From a virus (taxonomy: Duplodnaviria > Heunggongvirae > Uroviricota > Caudoviricetes), in the IMG/VR virus record IMGVR_UViG_2534681763_000019: a stretch of 42,120 nt of DNA; one strand, written 5' to 3'. Position 1 is the first letter of the stretch. Every line of letters starts with the position of its first letter. The notes beneath the pieces are model-generated. The model did no database searches and was not told where the DNA came from. It saw nothing but the letters and a program-made list of their open reading frames with translations. The translations under genes were made by a program, and so were the position numbers. Of the stretch, positions 34,496 through 42,120 are shown one piece after another.

Positions 34496-35512
34496 ATGAC
34501 TGTCAGAAAACAGCCAAACGGTAAATGGTTGTGCGAGTGCTATCCCAATGGACGCAATGGCAAGCGCGTGCGTAAGCAATTTGCTACGAAAGGCGAAGCC
34601 ATTGCTTTTGAAAGCTTCACAATGGAAGAAGTGAACAAAAAACCATGGCTGGGGGAAAAGGAAGATCGGCGACACCTATCAGAATTAATTGAGCAGTGGT
34701 ATTCCCTGTATGGTCAAACACTCGCAGACCCCAAGCGCCTCATGGCGAAACTTAGAATTATCTGTAATGGTCTAGGCGATCCCATCGCTTCAGAACTGAC
34801 AGCCGGTGACTTTACGAAATACCGCGAAGCACGGTTAAAAGGTGAAGTACGAAATGAAGATGGCACGTTTATGTCGCCCGTTAAGCCCCGCACGGTAAAC
34901 CTTGAACAGCGCAATCTATCATCTGTTTTTGGTACACTGAAAAAGTTGGGCCACTGGTCAGCCTCCAACCCGCTTGCTGGGCTGCCAACATTTAAAATTG
35001 CTGAGAGTGAATTGGCGTTCCTGACCCCGGAAGAAATTAAACGTCTGCTGGATGCCTGCGCCGATTCTCAAAGCTCCAGCCTGCTTTTGATTGCAAAAAT
35101 ATGCCTGGCCACCGGCGCACGCTGGAGCGAAGCCGAAAACCTGCAGAGTCATCAGGTATCAAAATACCGTATCACTTATACCAAGACCAAAGGCAAGAAA
35201 AACCGAACTGTGCCTATTTCTAAGGATTTATATGAAGAACTGCCTAAGAATAGGGGGAAGTTATTCACCCCATGCAGAAAAGCCTTTGAGCGTGCAGTAA
35301 AGCGGGCTGGTATCGATCTGCCAGAGGGTCAATGTACTCACGTTCTGCGTCATACATTCGCTAGCCATTTTATGATGAATGGTGGAAACATATTGGTTTT
35401 GCGGGATATCCTAGGACATTCAGATATAAAAATGACCATGGTCTATGCACACTTCGCCCCAGACCATTTAGAAGATGCCGTAACTAAAAATCCTTTATTT
35501 AATTTGAGGTAA
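34496..35512 (+). CDS. int: Tyrosine integrase (P2/186 family)
   Basis: 338-aa ORF with tyrosine-recombinase C-terminal motifs (ATGARWSE...HVLRHTFASHF...LGHSDIKMTMVYAH); adjacent to attR. Confidence 0.88.
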   Translation: MTVRKQPNGKWLCECYPNGRNGKRVRKQFATKGEAIAFESFTMEEVNKKPWLGEKEDRRHLSELIEQWYSLYGQTLADPKRLMAKLRIICNGLGDPIASELTAGDFTKYREARLKGEVRNEDGTFMSPVKPRTVNLEQRNLSSVFGTLKKLGHWSASNPLAGLPTFKIAESELAFLTPEEIKRLLDACADSQSSSLLLIAKICLATGARWSEAENLQSHQVSKYRITYTKTKGKKNRTVPISKDLYEELPKNRGKLFTPCRKAFERAVKRAGIDLPEGQCTHVLRHTFASHFMMNGGNILVLRDILGHSDIKMTMVYAHFAPDHLEDAVTKNPLFNLR

Positions 35513-36276: not shown

Positions 36277-36321
36277 ATGTAGGAATTTCGGACGCGGGTT
36301 CAACTCCCGCCAGCTCCACCA
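36277..36321. repeat. attR: second copy of the 45-bp ssrA 3'-end repeat
   Basis: Exact copy of 1016-1060; followed by a terminator and a P4-like integrase gene. Confidence 0.8.
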
Positions 36322-36444: not shown

Positions 36445-37716
36445 ATGGGACCCACTAAGAAGGGTCCAAAAACCGAGGGTCCCAAAATGGCAAAAATCGC
36501 TAAGAAGCTCACTGACACTGAAATCAAAAGCACCAAGCCAGCCGATAAAGAAATCAACTTGTTTGACGGTGATGGTCTGATTCTACGAATCGCTCCTTTG
36601 GCGAAAGGAGGCAAGAAAAATTGGTATTTCAGGTATGCAGTACCAGTGAGCAAGAAAAGAACCAAAATGAGCCTTGGGACATATCCTCACCTTACCCTTG
36701 CAAGAGCCAGAGCCTTACGTGATGAATATCTCTCCTTTCTGGCAAATGGTGTTGATCCCCAAATCCATAACAACGATAAGGCGAAGGCATTAAAGAGTGC
36801 TACTGAGCACACTCTCCAAGCCGTAGCGCGGAAATGGTTAGATGAGAAGGTAAAGACATCAGGTATCTCACAAGACCATGCAGCAGACATCTGGCGCAGC
36901 TTAGAGAGAAATGTCTTTCCCGGTCTGGGTAATGTCCCTATCAATGAGATCCGACCTAAGCTCTTAAAACAACACCTTGATCCTATTGAGCAACGAGGCG
37001 TATTGGAAACTCTACGCCGTATCATTTCACGTCTGAATGAAATCTTCCGGTGGGCAGCTACTGAAGAACTTATTGAGTTCAACCCGGCTGACAACCTTGG
37101 TCAAAGATTCAGTAAACCAAAAAAGCAAAATATGCCTGCCCTTCCCCCAAGCGAATTGCCAAGGTTTATGGAATCTTTGACGAATGCGTCAATCCGGTTG
37201 GAAACACGTATGCTAATTGAATGGCAATTGTTGACATGGGTTCGTCCGGGTGAAGCCGTTCGCGCAAGGTGGTCTGATATTGATACAACCAACAGCATTT
37301 GGAACATTCCTGCTGATTTCATGAAAATGAAAAAGCTTCACAAAGTTCCTTTGAGTAAAGAAGCTTTGCGCATCCTTGAATTAATGAAATCAATAAGTGG
37401 GCATAGAGAATGGGTTTTCCCCAGCATAAAAGCGCCTCTTAATCATATGCATGAACAAACAGCCAACGCAGCTATCATCCGAATGGGGTTCGGAGGCGAG
37501 CTTGTAGCTCACGGTATGCGTTCTATTGCACGAACAGCGGCAGAGGAGGCTGGTAAATTCAGAGCTGAAGTTCTTGAGGCAGCGCTTGCCCACTCGAAAA
37601 AAGATGAAATTATCGCAGCATACAATCGTGCAGAATATCTGATAGAGCGACAGAGTTTGATGCAATGGTGGAGTGATTACGTTCAAGCTCAAAGATCAAA
37701 TGCTCTGGTAGCCTAA
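36445..37716 (+). CDS. P4/CP4-57-like tyrosine integrase
   Basis: N-terminus (MAKIAKKLTDTEIKSTKP...LFDGDGL...WYFRY) follows the P4-family integrase pattern (probable start at the internal Met, 36487); C-terminus has recombinase motifs (ELVAHGMRS...ALAHS...AYNRAEY); sits beside the ssrA att remnant like intA of CP4-57. Confidence 0.85.
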   Translation: MGPTKKGPKTEGPKMAKIAKKLTDTEIKSTKPADKEINLFDGDGLILRIAPLAKGGKKNWYFRYAVPVSKKRTKMSLGTYPHLTLARARALRDEYLSFLANGVDPQIHNNDKAKALKSATEHTLQAVARKWLDEKVKTSGISQDHAADIWRSLERNVFPGLGNVPINEIRPKLLKQHLDPIEQRGVLETLRRIISRLNEIFRWAATEELIEFNPADNLGQRFSKPKKQNMPALPPSELPRFMESLTNASIRLETRMLIEWQLLTWVRPGEAVRARWSDIDTTNSIWNIPADFMKMKKLHKVPLSKEALRILELMKSISGHREWVFPSIKAPLNHMHEQTANAAIIRMGFGGELVAHGMRSIARTAAEEAGKFRAEVLEAALAHSKKDEIIAAYNRAEYLIERQSLMQWWSDYVQAQRSNALVA

Positions 37717-37754: not shown

Positions 37755-38171
37755 ATGGAAACCCTATTCAAAGTTTTTGAAAAATTTAGTTCCAGACCAC
37801 TTTTTTTTATTTTTTTCGGACTCTCACTTTGTGAATTTTTTCAGAAACAATCTGTTCTGATGAATCCATCAGCAGATAACATCGCGAAATTATTCGCAGC
37901 CATGATATTAGTTGTTTTTTTTACTTGGGGATTTGAATGGCTAATCTTCAAGTTCAATGTAAACCTTGAACCTCATGATCAAGGCGATATTGGACCAACA
38001 ATTGGAACGGCTACTTTAGCTGTATACTTAGTTTATGCCTTTCACTTTCTCAGTGAAAATCCTGAAGCATTAAATTTAAAGTTATTAACTAACTCTGGCT
38101 TTATATACAGCACAACTCTATTATTATTCTCATTAGAATGCATGAAGCTTAGAAGACTTAAACAAAAATAA
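37755..38171 (+). CDS. Small hydrophobic protein
   Basis: 138-aa AT-rich ORF with 3-4 hydrophobic helices, directly downstream of the integrase. Confidence 0.5.
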   Translation: METLFKVFEKFSSRPLFFIFFGLSLCEFFQKQSVLMNPSADNIAKLFAAMILVVFFTWGFEWLIFKFNVNLEPHDQGDIGPTIGTATLAVYLVYAFHFLSENPEALNLKLLTNSGFIYSTTLLLFSLECMKLRRLKQK

Positions 38172-38242: not shown

Positions 38243-40009
38243 TTATGGTAGCATCATTGATACATAATCCACACCAATCCTTGAGCTATACTGAGACGCT
38301 ATAGCCTGATATCTTTCTGCATAACCAGTTCTCAGTTGAGATTTAAGTTTGAGTCGGACAGGAACATTTTGCACGTTGCCATCCATATTACTTAAAAACA
38401 CGGCAGAAATAATATTTTTTTCTTCGCCATCAACTGTTGTTCCATGATTCAACACCACCATATAATCAACAACAGGAAGCGTTTTATCCCCTTCGAAAAT
38501 AGAGAGATATTTTCTTTGATTTTTATGCATTACATATATATATTTCGAATGTTCAGCAAATGGCAATGCTTTACTCTGACTGGCGTTAAAAAGCTCCAGA
38601 ACTTTAATGAGCCTGTGCGGACTTAATCTTACATGGTGAGGGTCGTTACCCTGAGTAGGAACCAAATCACATGCCGCAGATACACATAAATACCATTTGT
38701 TCGACTCTGTATCAAAGAAAATAGTGCCAGTAGAAATATGACCATCTTCAAAATTCTTTGAAGACAAATTCATATTTAAAGCATGATACATTTCGTGATA
38801 AGTATCATTATTTGATGGCAGATCCATTTTTGAAGAGCAATATTGGAGCAATGCAGCAACTCCGCTGTTAGCGTATTCATTTGAATAGCTATCAAAAACA
38901 CTTTTGATAAATTCATCCAGCGTATTATTATTTTTAAGTCTTTGATAAAGCTCTTCTGATAAATTACCAAATACAAAGTCAATATTTCTACATCTAATAT
39001 CAGGCGAGTCTGATTTTAATATCTCATTTAACCACGCAGCTTGACCGTAATGATCGTTAGCCAAATGATTTACAAAAGATAAAGCCTCAGCTTCGATTGC
39101 ATTCTGAATTTCAGATTTTATTAACTGATAATAAGATGGTTTCCATTCAATGAGAGAATCATTGAGAGTTTGCCAAATCCTATCTCCATCGTTTTCATGA
39201 TCATCTTGAACCTTATGAAATAGGGAGACAAAGATATTACCACATTGAATCCATTTTACTCCGCTTTCATCACCCCGAATGACATTGCCAGATGTGTTGC
39301 TAGAAATAATTGCATTTCTAGACACAGCATATTCTGCAATCATTTTTGCAATGAAGTTTTTATCCTTTTGATCCTCCAACACAGCATCATCATGTATTAA
39401 TCTTTTAATTCTTCTACAAGGCTTACTGTCTTTAATATAGGCTATTGTTTCATCTCTTGTGAGAGCTTTATTACCATTATCATTTAAGTTCGGTAATACA
39501 ACGTCTTCCCAATAACTTTGGACATCTTCATTATCGTAGTCAATGATCAAGCTGTTGATATCCAGAGCACCTTTGAGAGTCGATGATATCTGCATCCAAA
39601 CCGTTTCTAAATTCTCTCTAGTATATATTACAATCATATTTAAATGATCGGAGTCTTTCAAATCTTGTAATAGTTTAAGTGTTTTATCAGGTGCATTATT
39701 ATCAAGATGATAATCTACAATAATAAGATCTGATTTTCTAATCCGATCCACATCGAAATTAACAGAACCATTGTCAACATCACAAATCATATTTTTAGAT
39801 TGTAAAAAGCTCTCAAGAGTAGCGGCTCGTTTAGATGAGTCAATTTTGTTGTAGTCTAAATCAACTTCGTTATTCAACGCCCTGATTGATTCAGAATACG
39901 TCAGAAAATCGTCATCAATCATGACAACGGAACGAATTGCATTTTCGCAGAAAGTTTTCTGGACAAGAGAATTATAATTTGCCACTGTCATATTAGAACT
40001 CCACTCCAT
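38243..40009 (-). CDS. Receiver (REC)-domain protein with large uncharacterised C-terminal domain
   Basis: 588-aa ORF. N-terminus has receiver-domain hallmarks: acidic pocket VVMIDDD, phospho-Asp-like DLIIVDYHL, conserved Thr MIVIYT. No HTH evident in the ~450-aa C-terminal region. Start overlaps the upstream kinase-like gene by 17 nt. Confidence 0.7.
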   Translation of the reverse strand: MEWSSNMTVANYNSLVQKTFCENAIRSVVMIDDDFLTYSESIRALNNEVDLDYNKIDSSKRAATLESFLQSKNMICDVDNGSVNFDVDRIRKSDLIIVDYHLDNNAPDKTLKLLQDLKDSDHLNMIVIYTRENLETVWMQISSTLKGALDINSLIIDYDNEDVQSYWEDVVLPNLNDNGNKALTRDETIAYIKDSKPCRRIKRLIHDDAVLEDQKDKNFIAKMIAEYAVSRNAIISSNTSGNVIRGDESGVKWIQCGNIFVSLFHKVQDDHENDGDRIWQTLNDSLIEWKPSYYQLIKSEIQNAIEAEALSFVNHLANDHYGQAAWLNEILKSDSPDIRCRNIDFVFGNLSEELYQRLKNNNTLDEFIKSVFDSYSNEYANSGVAALLQYCSSKMDLPSNNDTYHEMYHALNMNLSSKNFEDGHISTGTIFFDTESNKWYLCVSAACDLVPTQGNDPHHVRLSPHRLIKVLELFNASQSKALPFAEHSKYIYVMHKNQRKYLSIFEGDKTLPVVDYMVVLNHGTTVDGEEKNIISAVFLSNMDGNVQNVPVRLKLKSQLRTGYAERYQAIASQYSSRIGVDYVSMMLP

Positions 40010-41711
40010 TGAACTGGATCACAAAATTAGCGCCATCTTTTATTAAATAGTTATCGCCTTCATCAGGTTCTGAATACCATATTTTATGATGTGCAACAGC
40101 AAGGTTTTCTCGACATAGATACAGACCTACCCCATGTCCATTTGCTCTTTTGCTATAAAATAGTTCAAATAGTCGCGGGATATCATCGGTATCAATTGCC
40201 GGACCAGAATTTGCTATGATAACCAAAGAATTCACAAAACCAATCTTTATGAGCCTATTATTTGACAGACTGACCCAATACATTGCATTGTTGATAATAT
40301 TAGTAAAAACAGGATAGATCCTTGATGGTATATCTGTTATTGCGATTTGCTTAAACTCTTCACTAAATTCAATAGTTATTCGTTGCCGTTCGAAACGCTC
40401 CCCAAAGAACTTCAGGACATAATCCATGATATTTTTTCCAGTTATTCTCTGCCTGGATTGATAACCTGATATTTTCAAAGGTGATAAGAAACGTATTTGT
40501 TGAGTAAGCGATCTGTGAGCATTTAACGCCAATGAAAAACCAGGGTGTTCTTTTACAGAAGTAGGAAGAGAGTTTAGTCCTCTGGTTACCATAGAATCCA
40601 TTTCTTCAAGTTCATGAGATATTATCTCAACACTAATACCTAACTGTGCAAGCGCGTTTAAACTTTTAGCTTTTTCTTCAAAATATGAGCGTTCTTCTTC
40701 AGATAATGAGAATGCTGAATCTAAGTTTATACCTTCAAATAATCTATCGAGACCTTTTATTATTGATTGATATTTGAAAGTTAGGGTATCAACTGACTCA
40801 ACATATAAACTATCGAGCAAATTAAACACATTTTCAATTTGTGAATCATTATCTATTGAATCAACAACTGATATAGTTTTAGCATAATAATCACTTCGAT
40901 CAACCTTTATTTCATCGGCCCATTTTTTTAAAAGAGAATGTATCTTCTCCTCTATCGTGTTATTAAACTTAGTTAGTTTAGAATTAATAATACCTTGATT
41001 TTTTTCAAGGTGATTTTTCGCTGACAATGAAGGCTCAAGTTTATTTAATTCAGAATCAAGTTTATTAATTGCTAACTTCATTTGTAGAATATACGCAGAG
41101 AACTCATTAAATTTATCTCTGTAGTCTCTATATTTCTCTTCATACATTCCAAGTTTTGGAGGTTTGATAGGCGTTTTAATTTCACTGCGCAACGCATCTA
41201 AGTTTGTAAGATCACTGTCTATAATTTTAAGATAGTTTAAATCTAACGAACCATCAGTTTTATCAAGCTTAGTTTTCAGCCTTTTAACAGCCTCCAAGGA
41301 AGCATCAAGAACTGGTGTCTGATTCTTCAAAGCTTCTGAAAAACTTTTTTGTGTTGATTTTCGAGCTTGTTGTTGAGCAGATTTTCTTAACTCTTTTTCA
41401 CGCTTAACTTGTTCTAAAAGCTCTTTACGGTCATCAGAACGTGAACCAAAAAATCTATCAGCAAGTTCAGTTAACAAATTAGATATAATAGTTTTCAGTT
41501 CTCTTGCAGCCTGGTTTCTTATGAATCCCTCTCTCCCCGACTTATCTTTCAGCTCTTTATTACTGGATTGAGTAATTCCAATATAACCAAAAATCCTTCT
41601 ATTAGACCAATAATATCGCCCTGCATTCCATGAACGTCTTTCTTCTATCTGGAAGAAATCATTATCTACTCGACCATAAGGTAATACTCTCAAGCTATCC
41701 CTAAAAATCAT
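39993..41711 (-). CDS. Soluble histidine-kinase-like protein (DHp + HATPase_c), 5' end possibly truncated by IS3
   Basis: 572-aa ORF. H-box-like IISHELEEM, N-box FTNIINNAMYW, G1-like IIANSGPAID, G2-like ANGHGVGLY; long coiled-coil-rich region upstream; no TM segments. The same frame stays open upstream of the first Met to the IS3 end at 41832. Confidence 0.7.
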   Translation of the reverse strand: MIFRDSLRVLPYGRVDNDFFQIEERRSWNAGRYYWSNRRIFGYIGITQSSNKELKDKSGREGFIRNQAARELKTIISNLLTELADRFFGSRSDDRKELLEQVKREKELRKSAQQQARKSTQKSFSEALKNQTPVLDASLEAVKRLKTKLDKTDGSLDLNYLKIIDSDLTNLDALRSEIKTPIKPPKLGMYEEKYRDYRDKFNEFSAYILQMKLAINKLDSELNKLEPSLSAKNHLEKNQGIINSKLTKFNNTIEEKIHSLLKKWADEIKVDRSDYYAKTISVVDSIDNDSQIENVFNLLDSLYVESVDTLTFKYQSIIKGLDRLFEGINLDSAFSLSEEERSYFEEKAKSLNALAQLGISVEIISHELEEMDSMVTRGLNSLPTSVKEHPGFSLALNAHRSLTQQIRFLSPLKISGYQSRQRITGKNIMDYVLKFFGERFERQRITIEFSEEFKQIAITDIPSRIYPVFTNIINNAMYWVSLSNNRLIKIGFVNSLVIIANSGPAIDTDDIPRLFELFYSKRANGHGVGLYLCRENLAVAHHKIWYSEPDEGDNYLIKDGANFVIQFNGVEF

Positions 41712-41832
41712 TAGTCCTGCATACTTTTTGGCCTTAAGATCAAAGTGGGAATGTTCACGTTCAGTATGTGATGTATTTTGTGAAAGGAATTCAAACGTTC
41801 CTATCTGAAGCTCAAATGGGCCGACCCCTGCG

Positions 41833-42120
41833 TGATCCTACCCACGTAATATGGACACAGGCCTAAGCGAGGTTCTTGTTTTCAAATTGTTCCGGACTGA
41901 GGCCGCCACACCAACTGTGCCGCCGCCACCGATTGTAATCACATTCGATATAATTAAACACCGTTGCCCGCATTATTTCCCGGCTGATAAAGTGTTCTCC
42001 ATGGATACATTCCACTTTCAGCGAATGAAAGAAGCTTTCCACGCAGGCATTATCGTAGCAGCAACCTTTTGCGCTCATACTTCCACGCAGATTATGCCGC
42101 TTCAGTTGCGCCTGATAATC
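41833..42120 (-). mobile_element. IS3 (partial; right inverted-repeat end, element continues beyond the window)
   Basis: Terminal sequence TGATCCTACCCACGTAATATGGACACAGGCCTAAGCG matches my recollection of the IS3 right inverted repeat; encodes the C-terminus of the IS3-family OrfB transposase. Confidence 0.8.
41863..42120 (-). CDS. IS3-family transposase OrfB, C-terminal part (truncated by window edge)
   Basis: ORF-track 71-aa fragment (...[23 protein letters not shown]...[12 protein letters not shown]) with the frame open to the window edge; DDE transposase C-terminus. Confidence 0.8.

Follow-up and report, generated by a model that had tools for sequence, protein, structure and literature searches.

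At the end of the 42,120-nt virus record IMGVR_UViG_2534681763_000019 (Caudoviricetes; hereafter the window, that is, the whole stretch of DNA analyzed), an insertion sequence (IS), IS3, abuts a minus-strand kinase-like gene, so the locus raises the question of whether the element removed the 5′ end of this gene or the annotated open reading frame (ORF) is complete. A first-pass annotation had proposed 5′ loss based on about 40 stop-free sense codons running from the annotated Met 41711 to the IS3 repeat at 41833. In this study, the ORF was found to be, in all likelihood, the 3′ 58% of a 988-amino acid (aa) paraMORC-type ATPase/kinase gene that was cut by an IS3-associated deletion reaching up to ygaQ. 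The features at the junction are as follows.

39993..41711, minus strand: kinase remnant ORF, 572 aa, covering residues 417-988 of the full-length protein, annotated as an 'ATP-binding protein' (WP_000577254.1)
41712..41831, minus strand: orphan stretch of 40 sense codons (AGVGPFELQIGTFEFLSQNTSHTEREHSHFDLKAKKYAGL) without a start codon, corresponding to residues 377-416 of the full-length 988-aa protein
41838..41840, minus strand: TAG, the first in-frame stop codon 5′ of the remnant ORF, within the IS3 terminal repeat
41833..42120, minus strand: IS3 right-end segment (the window stops inside the element), 288 bp, 100% identical to the 1258-bp IS3 of Escherichia coli W
41833-41871, minus strand: right terminal inverted repeat (IRR) of IS3, 39 nt, imperfect, outermost base 41833, end sequence TGATCCTACCC...

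The Upstream Frame Encodes Residues 377-416 of a 988-aa Protein

The minus-strand translation of 41400-41891 reads ...ILRG*DHAGVGPFELQIGTFEFLSQNTSHTEREHSHFDLKAKKYAGLM IFRDSL..., and the residues read in frame ahead of the annotated Met are DHAGVGPFELQIGTFEFLSQNTSHTEREHSHFDLKAKKYAGL. Between the TAG (41840-41838) and ATG 41711 lie 42 sense codons, 40 of which (41831-41712) are outside IS3, and no ATG, GTG, or TTG occurs among these 40; the coordinates and the stop inside IS3 given by the first-pass annotation were exact. Its argument that such an open stretch is improbable by chance held only in part. With a GC content of 34% and a per-codon stop probability of 0.079, as given by the local composition, a run of 40 codons would stay open by chance with P ~0.037, which is mildly unusual, and of the 40-codon windows taken from the other five, non-coding frames of the kinase gene, 0 to 9% are open; frame openness by itself is weak evidence for truncation. 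It is because of homology to 988-aa proteins, not because of openness, that the 40 upstream codons are recognized as real coding sequence.

To this end, the 612-codon extended frame (572 + 40) was used as the query in a protein search. Homologues of 988-991 aa in Salmonella, Klebsiella, and Serratia (e.g., P0003 and P0006) showed 99% identity over 100% of the query, and in the protein alignment the 40 upstream codons matched residues 377-416 exactly, with the annotated Met corresponding to residue 417. IS-free homologous islands, the comparison that had been proposed for recovering the full-length gene, were available at three loci (L002-L004). In these, a C5 DNA methylase (402 aa), the 988-aa ATPase/kinase, and a Response_reg_2 protein (582 aa) are encoded in this order, the methylase gene overlapping the kinase gene by 20 nt. 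Over the 120 bases that separate the ATG from IS3, the window and L002 differ at a single position (119/120 identical), and this difference is synonymous; the DNA similarity of the window to all three loci ends exactly at the IS3 start. As the similarity ends at the IS3 boundary, residues 1-376 were removed by IS3; this part, 1128 bp of the kinase gene, is absent in the E. coli copy, and IS3 stands in its place. The proposed loss of the 5′ end is thereby borne out.

The lost and retained parts were then defined by domains. In the intact protein, a soluble paraMORC-type GHKL ATPase with a fused histidine-kinase core, the N-terminal HATPase_c_3 is followed by a beta-rich middle domain, a coiled coil, HEF_HK, and HATPase_c. 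The remnant retains the coiled-coil region, the HEF_HK phosphoacceptor domain (about 40470-40646; PF19191, 26.2 bits against a cutoff of 24.1), and HATPase_c (about 40053-40328; PF02518, 44.7 bits). Its C-terminal part matches solved histidine-kinase structures in the PDB, and its SHELEE motif, H-box His, N box, and G boxes are invariant alignment columns. The additional N-terminal HATPase_c_3 (PF13589) carried by the 988-991-aa homologues was not found by Pfam in the window ORF. So, the suggested loss of an N-terminal domain was correct, while the lost domain is a GHKL ATPase module in the sensor position rather than a classical sensor. An AlphaFold model of the 988-aa protein was used as a hint only, being poor (mean predicted local distance difference test score, pLDDT, 59; predicted template modelling score, pTM, 0.31); it placed residue 417 within a predicted beta-rich domain of residues ~309-462. 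The alignment shows the remnant starting in the block where conservation across the protein is highest.

IS3 Joins the Kinase Stub to a Truncated ygaQ

Within the window, the 3′ end of IS3 orfB occupies 41863-42078, with its stop codon at 41863-41865, and the transposase gene runs in the same direction as the kinase remnant. Because the window ends inside IS3, the far end of the element was read in complete genomes identical to the window across the junction, E. coli W and ETEC-2265; the latter shares the exact tandem-island layout of the window. The E. coli W copy is complete, 1258 bp long, with 39-nt terminal inverted repeats that are 72% complementary and of the type that begins with 5′-TG and closes with CA-3′. 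RefSeq lists an 'IS3-like element IS3 family transposase, programmed frameshift' in E. coli W, strain 120899, and ETEC-2265 (loci L001, L093, and L094), as expected for the overlapping orfA and orfB of IS3, which a programmed -1 frameshift joins.

On its right side, the E. coli W element borders the kinase stub, the flanking bases being GCG (41830-41832 in the window); on its left side, where the flank is AGA, it borders a 5′-truncated ygaQ (alpha-amylase) pseudogene that is followed by glaH. The far flank in ETEC-2265 is GAA, 19 bp further into ygaQ. A check for a 3-bp target-site duplication had been suggested by the first-pass annotation; the far end was located, and the duplication was absent (GCG vs. 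AGA in E. coli W or GAA in ETEC-2265). Judged from these flanks, the missing duplication shows that the site of this copy is not that of a simple insertion, while its identity as IS3 is unaffected. Given the lack of a duplication and the interruption of two unrelated genes, one at each end, the event is concluded to be an IS3-associated deletion and not a simple insertion. The event was larger than first supposed: in addition to the kinase 5′ half, it took the methylase gene, the remainder of the island with its relaxase, and about 1.1 kb from the 5′ end of ygaQ.

The arrangement resembles IS-mediated adjacent deletion, in that a complete IS3 with 39-nt inverted repeats and frameshifted orfAB is fused at each end inside a different gene and lacks a duplication. 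It does not differ in kind from classical IS3 adjacent deletions, except that the ygaQ-side junction was altered further afterwards. The deletion would have occurred in an ancestor of about 10% of E. coli, joining the IS3 right end to kinase codon 376/377 and the left end to the middle of ygaQ, by intramolecular transposition of a single IS3 or, alternatively, by recombination between two copies of the element.

The ygaQ-side junction is polymorphic. The K-12 ygaQ is uninterrupted and reads ...AAGTAA/AGATAACATCTCT..., and E. coli W (L001 9180-9215) retains AGATAACATCTCTAAGGAT beside the IS end, while ETEC-2265-type genomes (L094 8110-8130) lack those 19 bp of ygaQ. In O111-type genomes (L007 3595-3610; L008 3595-3612), IS3 is gone, leaving two different footprints of 2-3 bp (CTGCG-TG-ATCTCT in B1_2 and CTGCG-CGC-ATCTCT in 95JB1) and 7 bp less ygaQ. 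Since these footprints miss 7 bp of genuine ygaQ that the IS3-bearing allele keeps, they are derived and not ancestral.

The Truncated Locus Has a Single Origin in E. coli

The remnant was then searched for in 5426 complete E. coli genomes. It was carried by 561 of them (about 10%), at ≥99% identity in all but one, and every carrier matched up to the same breakpoint. The IS3 junction itself was found in at least 483 of the carriers. The remaining carriers, O111 strains among them, are mostly IS3-less, and about 14% of carriers have lost IS3 but kept the remnant. The methylase and kinase 5′ DNA were found in none of the 5426 genomes. The common breakpoint and the absence of the 5′ part from all of these genomes point to a single ancestral event.

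Overall, the locus is an ordinary IS-generated gene remnant, and its main value lies in annotation: WP_000577254.1 has been assigned in hundreds of complete E. coli genomes and belongs to a protein cluster of about 2000 sequences, and databases present it as an intact 572-aa 'ATP-binding protein' although it is a gene fragment.

Transcription and Possible Activity of the Remnant

Directly downstream of the remnant lies the response regulator-like (RR-like) gene of the module.

38243..39991, minus strand: Response_reg_2 (receiver, REC-like) protein, 582 aa, its first base 2 nt beyond the kinase stop codon

As the genes of the intact locus overlap or abut, their transcription would be expected to start upstream of the methylase gene. 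The deletion would have taken the presumed native promoter region of the operon along with residues 1-376, the methylase, and everything up to ygaQ, and native transcription was presumably lost with it. The product would be a promoterless truncated kinase ORF with an intact RR-like gene, transcribed only by IS3 read-through or from cryptic promoters. The first-pass annotation had alternatively suggested a hybrid promoter supplied by the IS3 end, for which consensus -35/-10 scans gave no support: neither across the IS3 end nor within the 120-bp stub did any candidate reach 9/12, and the best scores, 7-8/12, were at chance level. No terminator was predicted between orfB and ATG 41711, and with orfAB co-directional with the remnant, weak IS3 read-through is plausible. 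Because the ATPase domain and the methylase are missing, the module is presumably non-functional as a methylase-linked system.

Several points weigh against reading the locus as a dead product of an IS3-associated deletion. Neither ancestral intermediate, that is, a simple IS3 insertion in ygaQ or in the intact kinase gene, was found in E. coli, a synthetic 240-bp junction query for the former giving no match among the 5426 genomes, a result compatible with either deletion mechanism and with any order of events. Every conserved residue of the kinase core (H-box His, N box, and G boxes) is kept, and some translation from ATG 41711 is possible given the AGGA located 3 nt before it. Further, the RR-like gene is intact in 560 of the 561 genomes, and it differs from the intact allele by 2 non-synonymous and 12 synonymous changes, a ratio that would be compatible with continuing constraint, although most of this divergence may predate the truncation.

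Alternatively, the truncated kinase and the RR-like gene could persist as a working, re-purposed module, in which IS3 would provide transcription by a hybrid or outward promoter or by read-through, and the sensor-less kinase would constitutively control the RR-like protein. The shared strand of orfAB and remnant with no predicted terminator between them, the intact kinase motifs, the retention and substitution pattern of the RR-like gene, and the presence of the remnant in 10% of complete E. coli genomes are all in line with such a module. However, besides the absence of any -35/-10 pair of ≥9/12 over the IS3 end or stub, the start at residue 417 falls within the most conserved block, inside the beta-rich domain predicted by the low-confidence model. 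The kinase stub is also relatively richer in non-synonymous change against the intact allele (5 non-synonymous vs. 4 synonymous) than the RR-like gene, and sporadic IS insertions and partial deletions have hit both genes. Six E. coli copies differ at only 4 codons (3 non-synonymous and 1 synonymous), close to a neutral ratio, although such counts (9, 14, and 4 substitutions) are far too few to settle selection on the remnant. Finally, the roughly one-seventh of carriers that lost IS3 would have lost any IS3-derived transcription as well, yet kept the remnant. We therefore consider a working re-purposed module improbable, and it is just as doubtful that the sensor-less kinase and its partner were kept because they are still active, e.g., as an orphan signalling or toxin-like pair freed from methylase and paraMORC ATPase gating.

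All five residue differences between the stub and the 99% identical intact allele (S270A, T292A, I297T, V310A, and D329G) lie within 60 codons of the coiled-coil region, in a cluster spanning window positions 40845-41024, that is, codons 270-329 of the 612-codon frame. This cluster could be a small recombination patch or reflect a local relaxation of constraint.

Short Homologues in Other Genera

If the open upstream frame were coincidental, the gene would natively start at Met 41711 as a short HEF_HK + HATPase_c architecture, corresponding to 'group 2' of the family description (Bellieny-Rabelo et al., 2021; PMC8011034). In favor of a native start, 40 open codons have about a 4% chance of arising at random, database homologues of 572 aa are listed in Salmonella, Klebsiella, Pectobacterium, Yersinia, Morganella, and Serratia, and 34 of 222 family members lack HATPase_c_3 (PMC8011034). 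Short homologues from three genera (Salmonella, Morganella, and Serratia) were then checked at the DNA level. The GenBank/RefSeq 'ATP-binding proteins' of 572 aa or 564 aa in these genera start at the counterpart of Met 41711. In Salmonella (L005 3984-6983), the ORF is open for 999 codons and the annotated short start is a miscall; in Morganella (L090 2714-5695), the gene is broken by an in-frame stop, and in Serratia (L091 2745-5719) by a frameshift. The upstream sequence of all three is homologous to the N-terminal half and is never unrelated, so that the intact short homologues with unrelated upstream sequence, which the first-pass annotation had named as the finding that would speak against truncation, were looked for in these three genera and not found. 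Together with the identity of the 40 codons to residues 377-416 of the 988-aa proteins, this refutes a native start at Met 41711, to which we assign a negligible probability. The start annotated in Salmonella is the one at which the abundant E. coli protein truncated by IS3 also begins.

Like the E. coli fragment, the short gene calls of the family in the three genera checked are not genuine short genes. The reported 'short architecture' class of the family is probably inflated by the fragment and such calls, and 'group 2' of PMC8011034 may be partly an artefact of such start calls and broken genes. For functional study of the module, the intact Salmonella, Klebsiella, or Serratia allele is suited, and not the E. 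coli one.

A simple IS3 insertion, the commonest outcome of IS3 transposition, would leave the 5′ half surviving beyond the other IS3 end and the split gene flanked by a 3-bp duplication, and is refuted for the sampled genomes, with virtually no probability left to it, by a far end that abuts ygaQ with unequal flanks in genomes identical to the window across the junction and by the 5′ half and methylase occurring in 0 of 5426 genomes.

The Intact Three-Gene Module and Its Family

Relatives of the module were collected by a scan of one genome per species, which gave 265, and 80 loci from many phyla were kept. The kinase was full length (match to residues ~1-987) in all 80. A C5 methylase gene was directly upstream on the same strand in 57 loci and elsewhere within 6 kb in 21 further ones (78/80 in total), and an RR-like gene was directly downstream of the kinase in 75/80. 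A C5 methylase is also present in L002-L006, L090, and L091. No C5 methylase is linked to the E. coli remnant, whose usual upstream slot is taken by IS3. In Salmonella, Morganella, and Serratia relatives, an HNH_2/ScoMcrA-SBD nuclease gene adjoins the RR-like gene. No model of PADLOC 2.0.0 matched the kinase, the RR-like protein, or the 138-aa protein encoded nearby.

The family was described bioinformatically as HEF_HK/Response_reg_2 pairs by Bellieny-Rabelo et al. (2021; PMC8011034), who suggested that the two proteins make up a two-component-like pair in the cytoplasm, which would descend from paraMORC ATPases and be associated with restriction-modification genes, its function being predicted; paraMORCs were defined by Iyer et al. 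(2008), according to the citing papers PMC8011034 and PMC12137116. The window genes resemble this family in that the remnant has HEF_HK (PF19191) and HATPase_c with a Response_reg_2 (PF19192) gene directly downstream, and the intact relatives have the 'group 1' architecture of that study, with an N-terminal HATPase_c_3 and an upstream C5 methylase. In contrast to 'group 1', the E. coli copy lacks HATPase_c_3 and the methylase as a result of the IS3-associated deletion, and merely resembles 'group 2'. Truncation by an IS is not mentioned in PMC8011034.

The closest experimentally tested analogue is the Ambrosia anti-phage system (bioRxiv 10.1101/2025.09.30.679545), which comprises an XRE regulator, an N6 methylase, an HK/HSP90-like ATPase, a REC-winged helix-turn-helix (wHTH) regulator, and a type IV HNH nuclease, each of the five genes being required for defence. 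The original module of the stump island resembles this recently described system in that genes for a DNA methylase, a sensor kinase of the HATPase type, and a receiver protein are clustered in the same order and with the same logic, a likeness in architecture only that is taken from the preprint text. However, the module methylase is of the C5 type, whereas that of Ambrosia is N6; the module receiver protein has no detectable wHTH and an output region of no known fold; no XRE gene was seen; and the window keeps only the truncated kinase and the receiver protein.

The RR-Like Partner and the Island Context

In the RR-like protein, the REC domain was confidently identified. The C-terminal ~350 aa (window 38243-39300) were predicted as a helical region and a beta-rich domain with pLDDT mostly above 85, and contain Cys/Asp and Gln/Arg/Tyr motifs that are invariant; neither Pfam nor a fold comparison with the PDB gave a match for this region. 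A 453-aa 'partial' form of the protein (P0128) has 1605 member sequences, compared with 1966 for the full-length form, which suggests that many draft E. coli assemblies break the gene at codon 453, probably due to IS insertion. In the complete genome of UTAK-14, an IS3-family element lies inside the RR-like gene.

The remaining features of the island and its surroundings in the window are as follows.

37755..38171, plus strand: hypothetical protein, 138 aa, an island gene found in only 4/80 related loci, outside the conserved module
36445..37716, plus strand: island integrase, a tyrosine integrase with an arm-type DNA-binding domain
36290..36321, plus strand: second copy of the ssrA 3′ end (32 nt), the att repeat that marks the island start
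34496-35512: site-specific integrase closing the prophage-like element
698-1060: full ssrA
1-483: smpB

Between the two ssrA copies lies a prophage-like element of ~35 kb with a 1025-aa ORF and many small minus-strand ORFs. No tmRNA was found next to the island integrase by ARAGORN or Rfam; just the 3′ 32 nt of ssrA are repeated there, with the full ssrA 35 kb upstream. As the ssrA 3′ end is present twice, two elements are integrated in tandem at ssrA. In L002-L004, IS-free islands that occupy this ssrA site as well, the module adjoins the same 138-aa gene, the same integrase, and smpB. The B1/A-type ssrA island of E. coli represents the remaining stump of a mobilisable island, which carried the methylase, paraMORC-kinase, and receiver module.

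The exact tandem junction of the window is common to only 29 complete E. coli genomes. In E. coli strain 120899 (L093 8966-12154), the island integrase is split by an insertion of IS100, an IS21-family element, reflecting further IS-driven decay of the same island.

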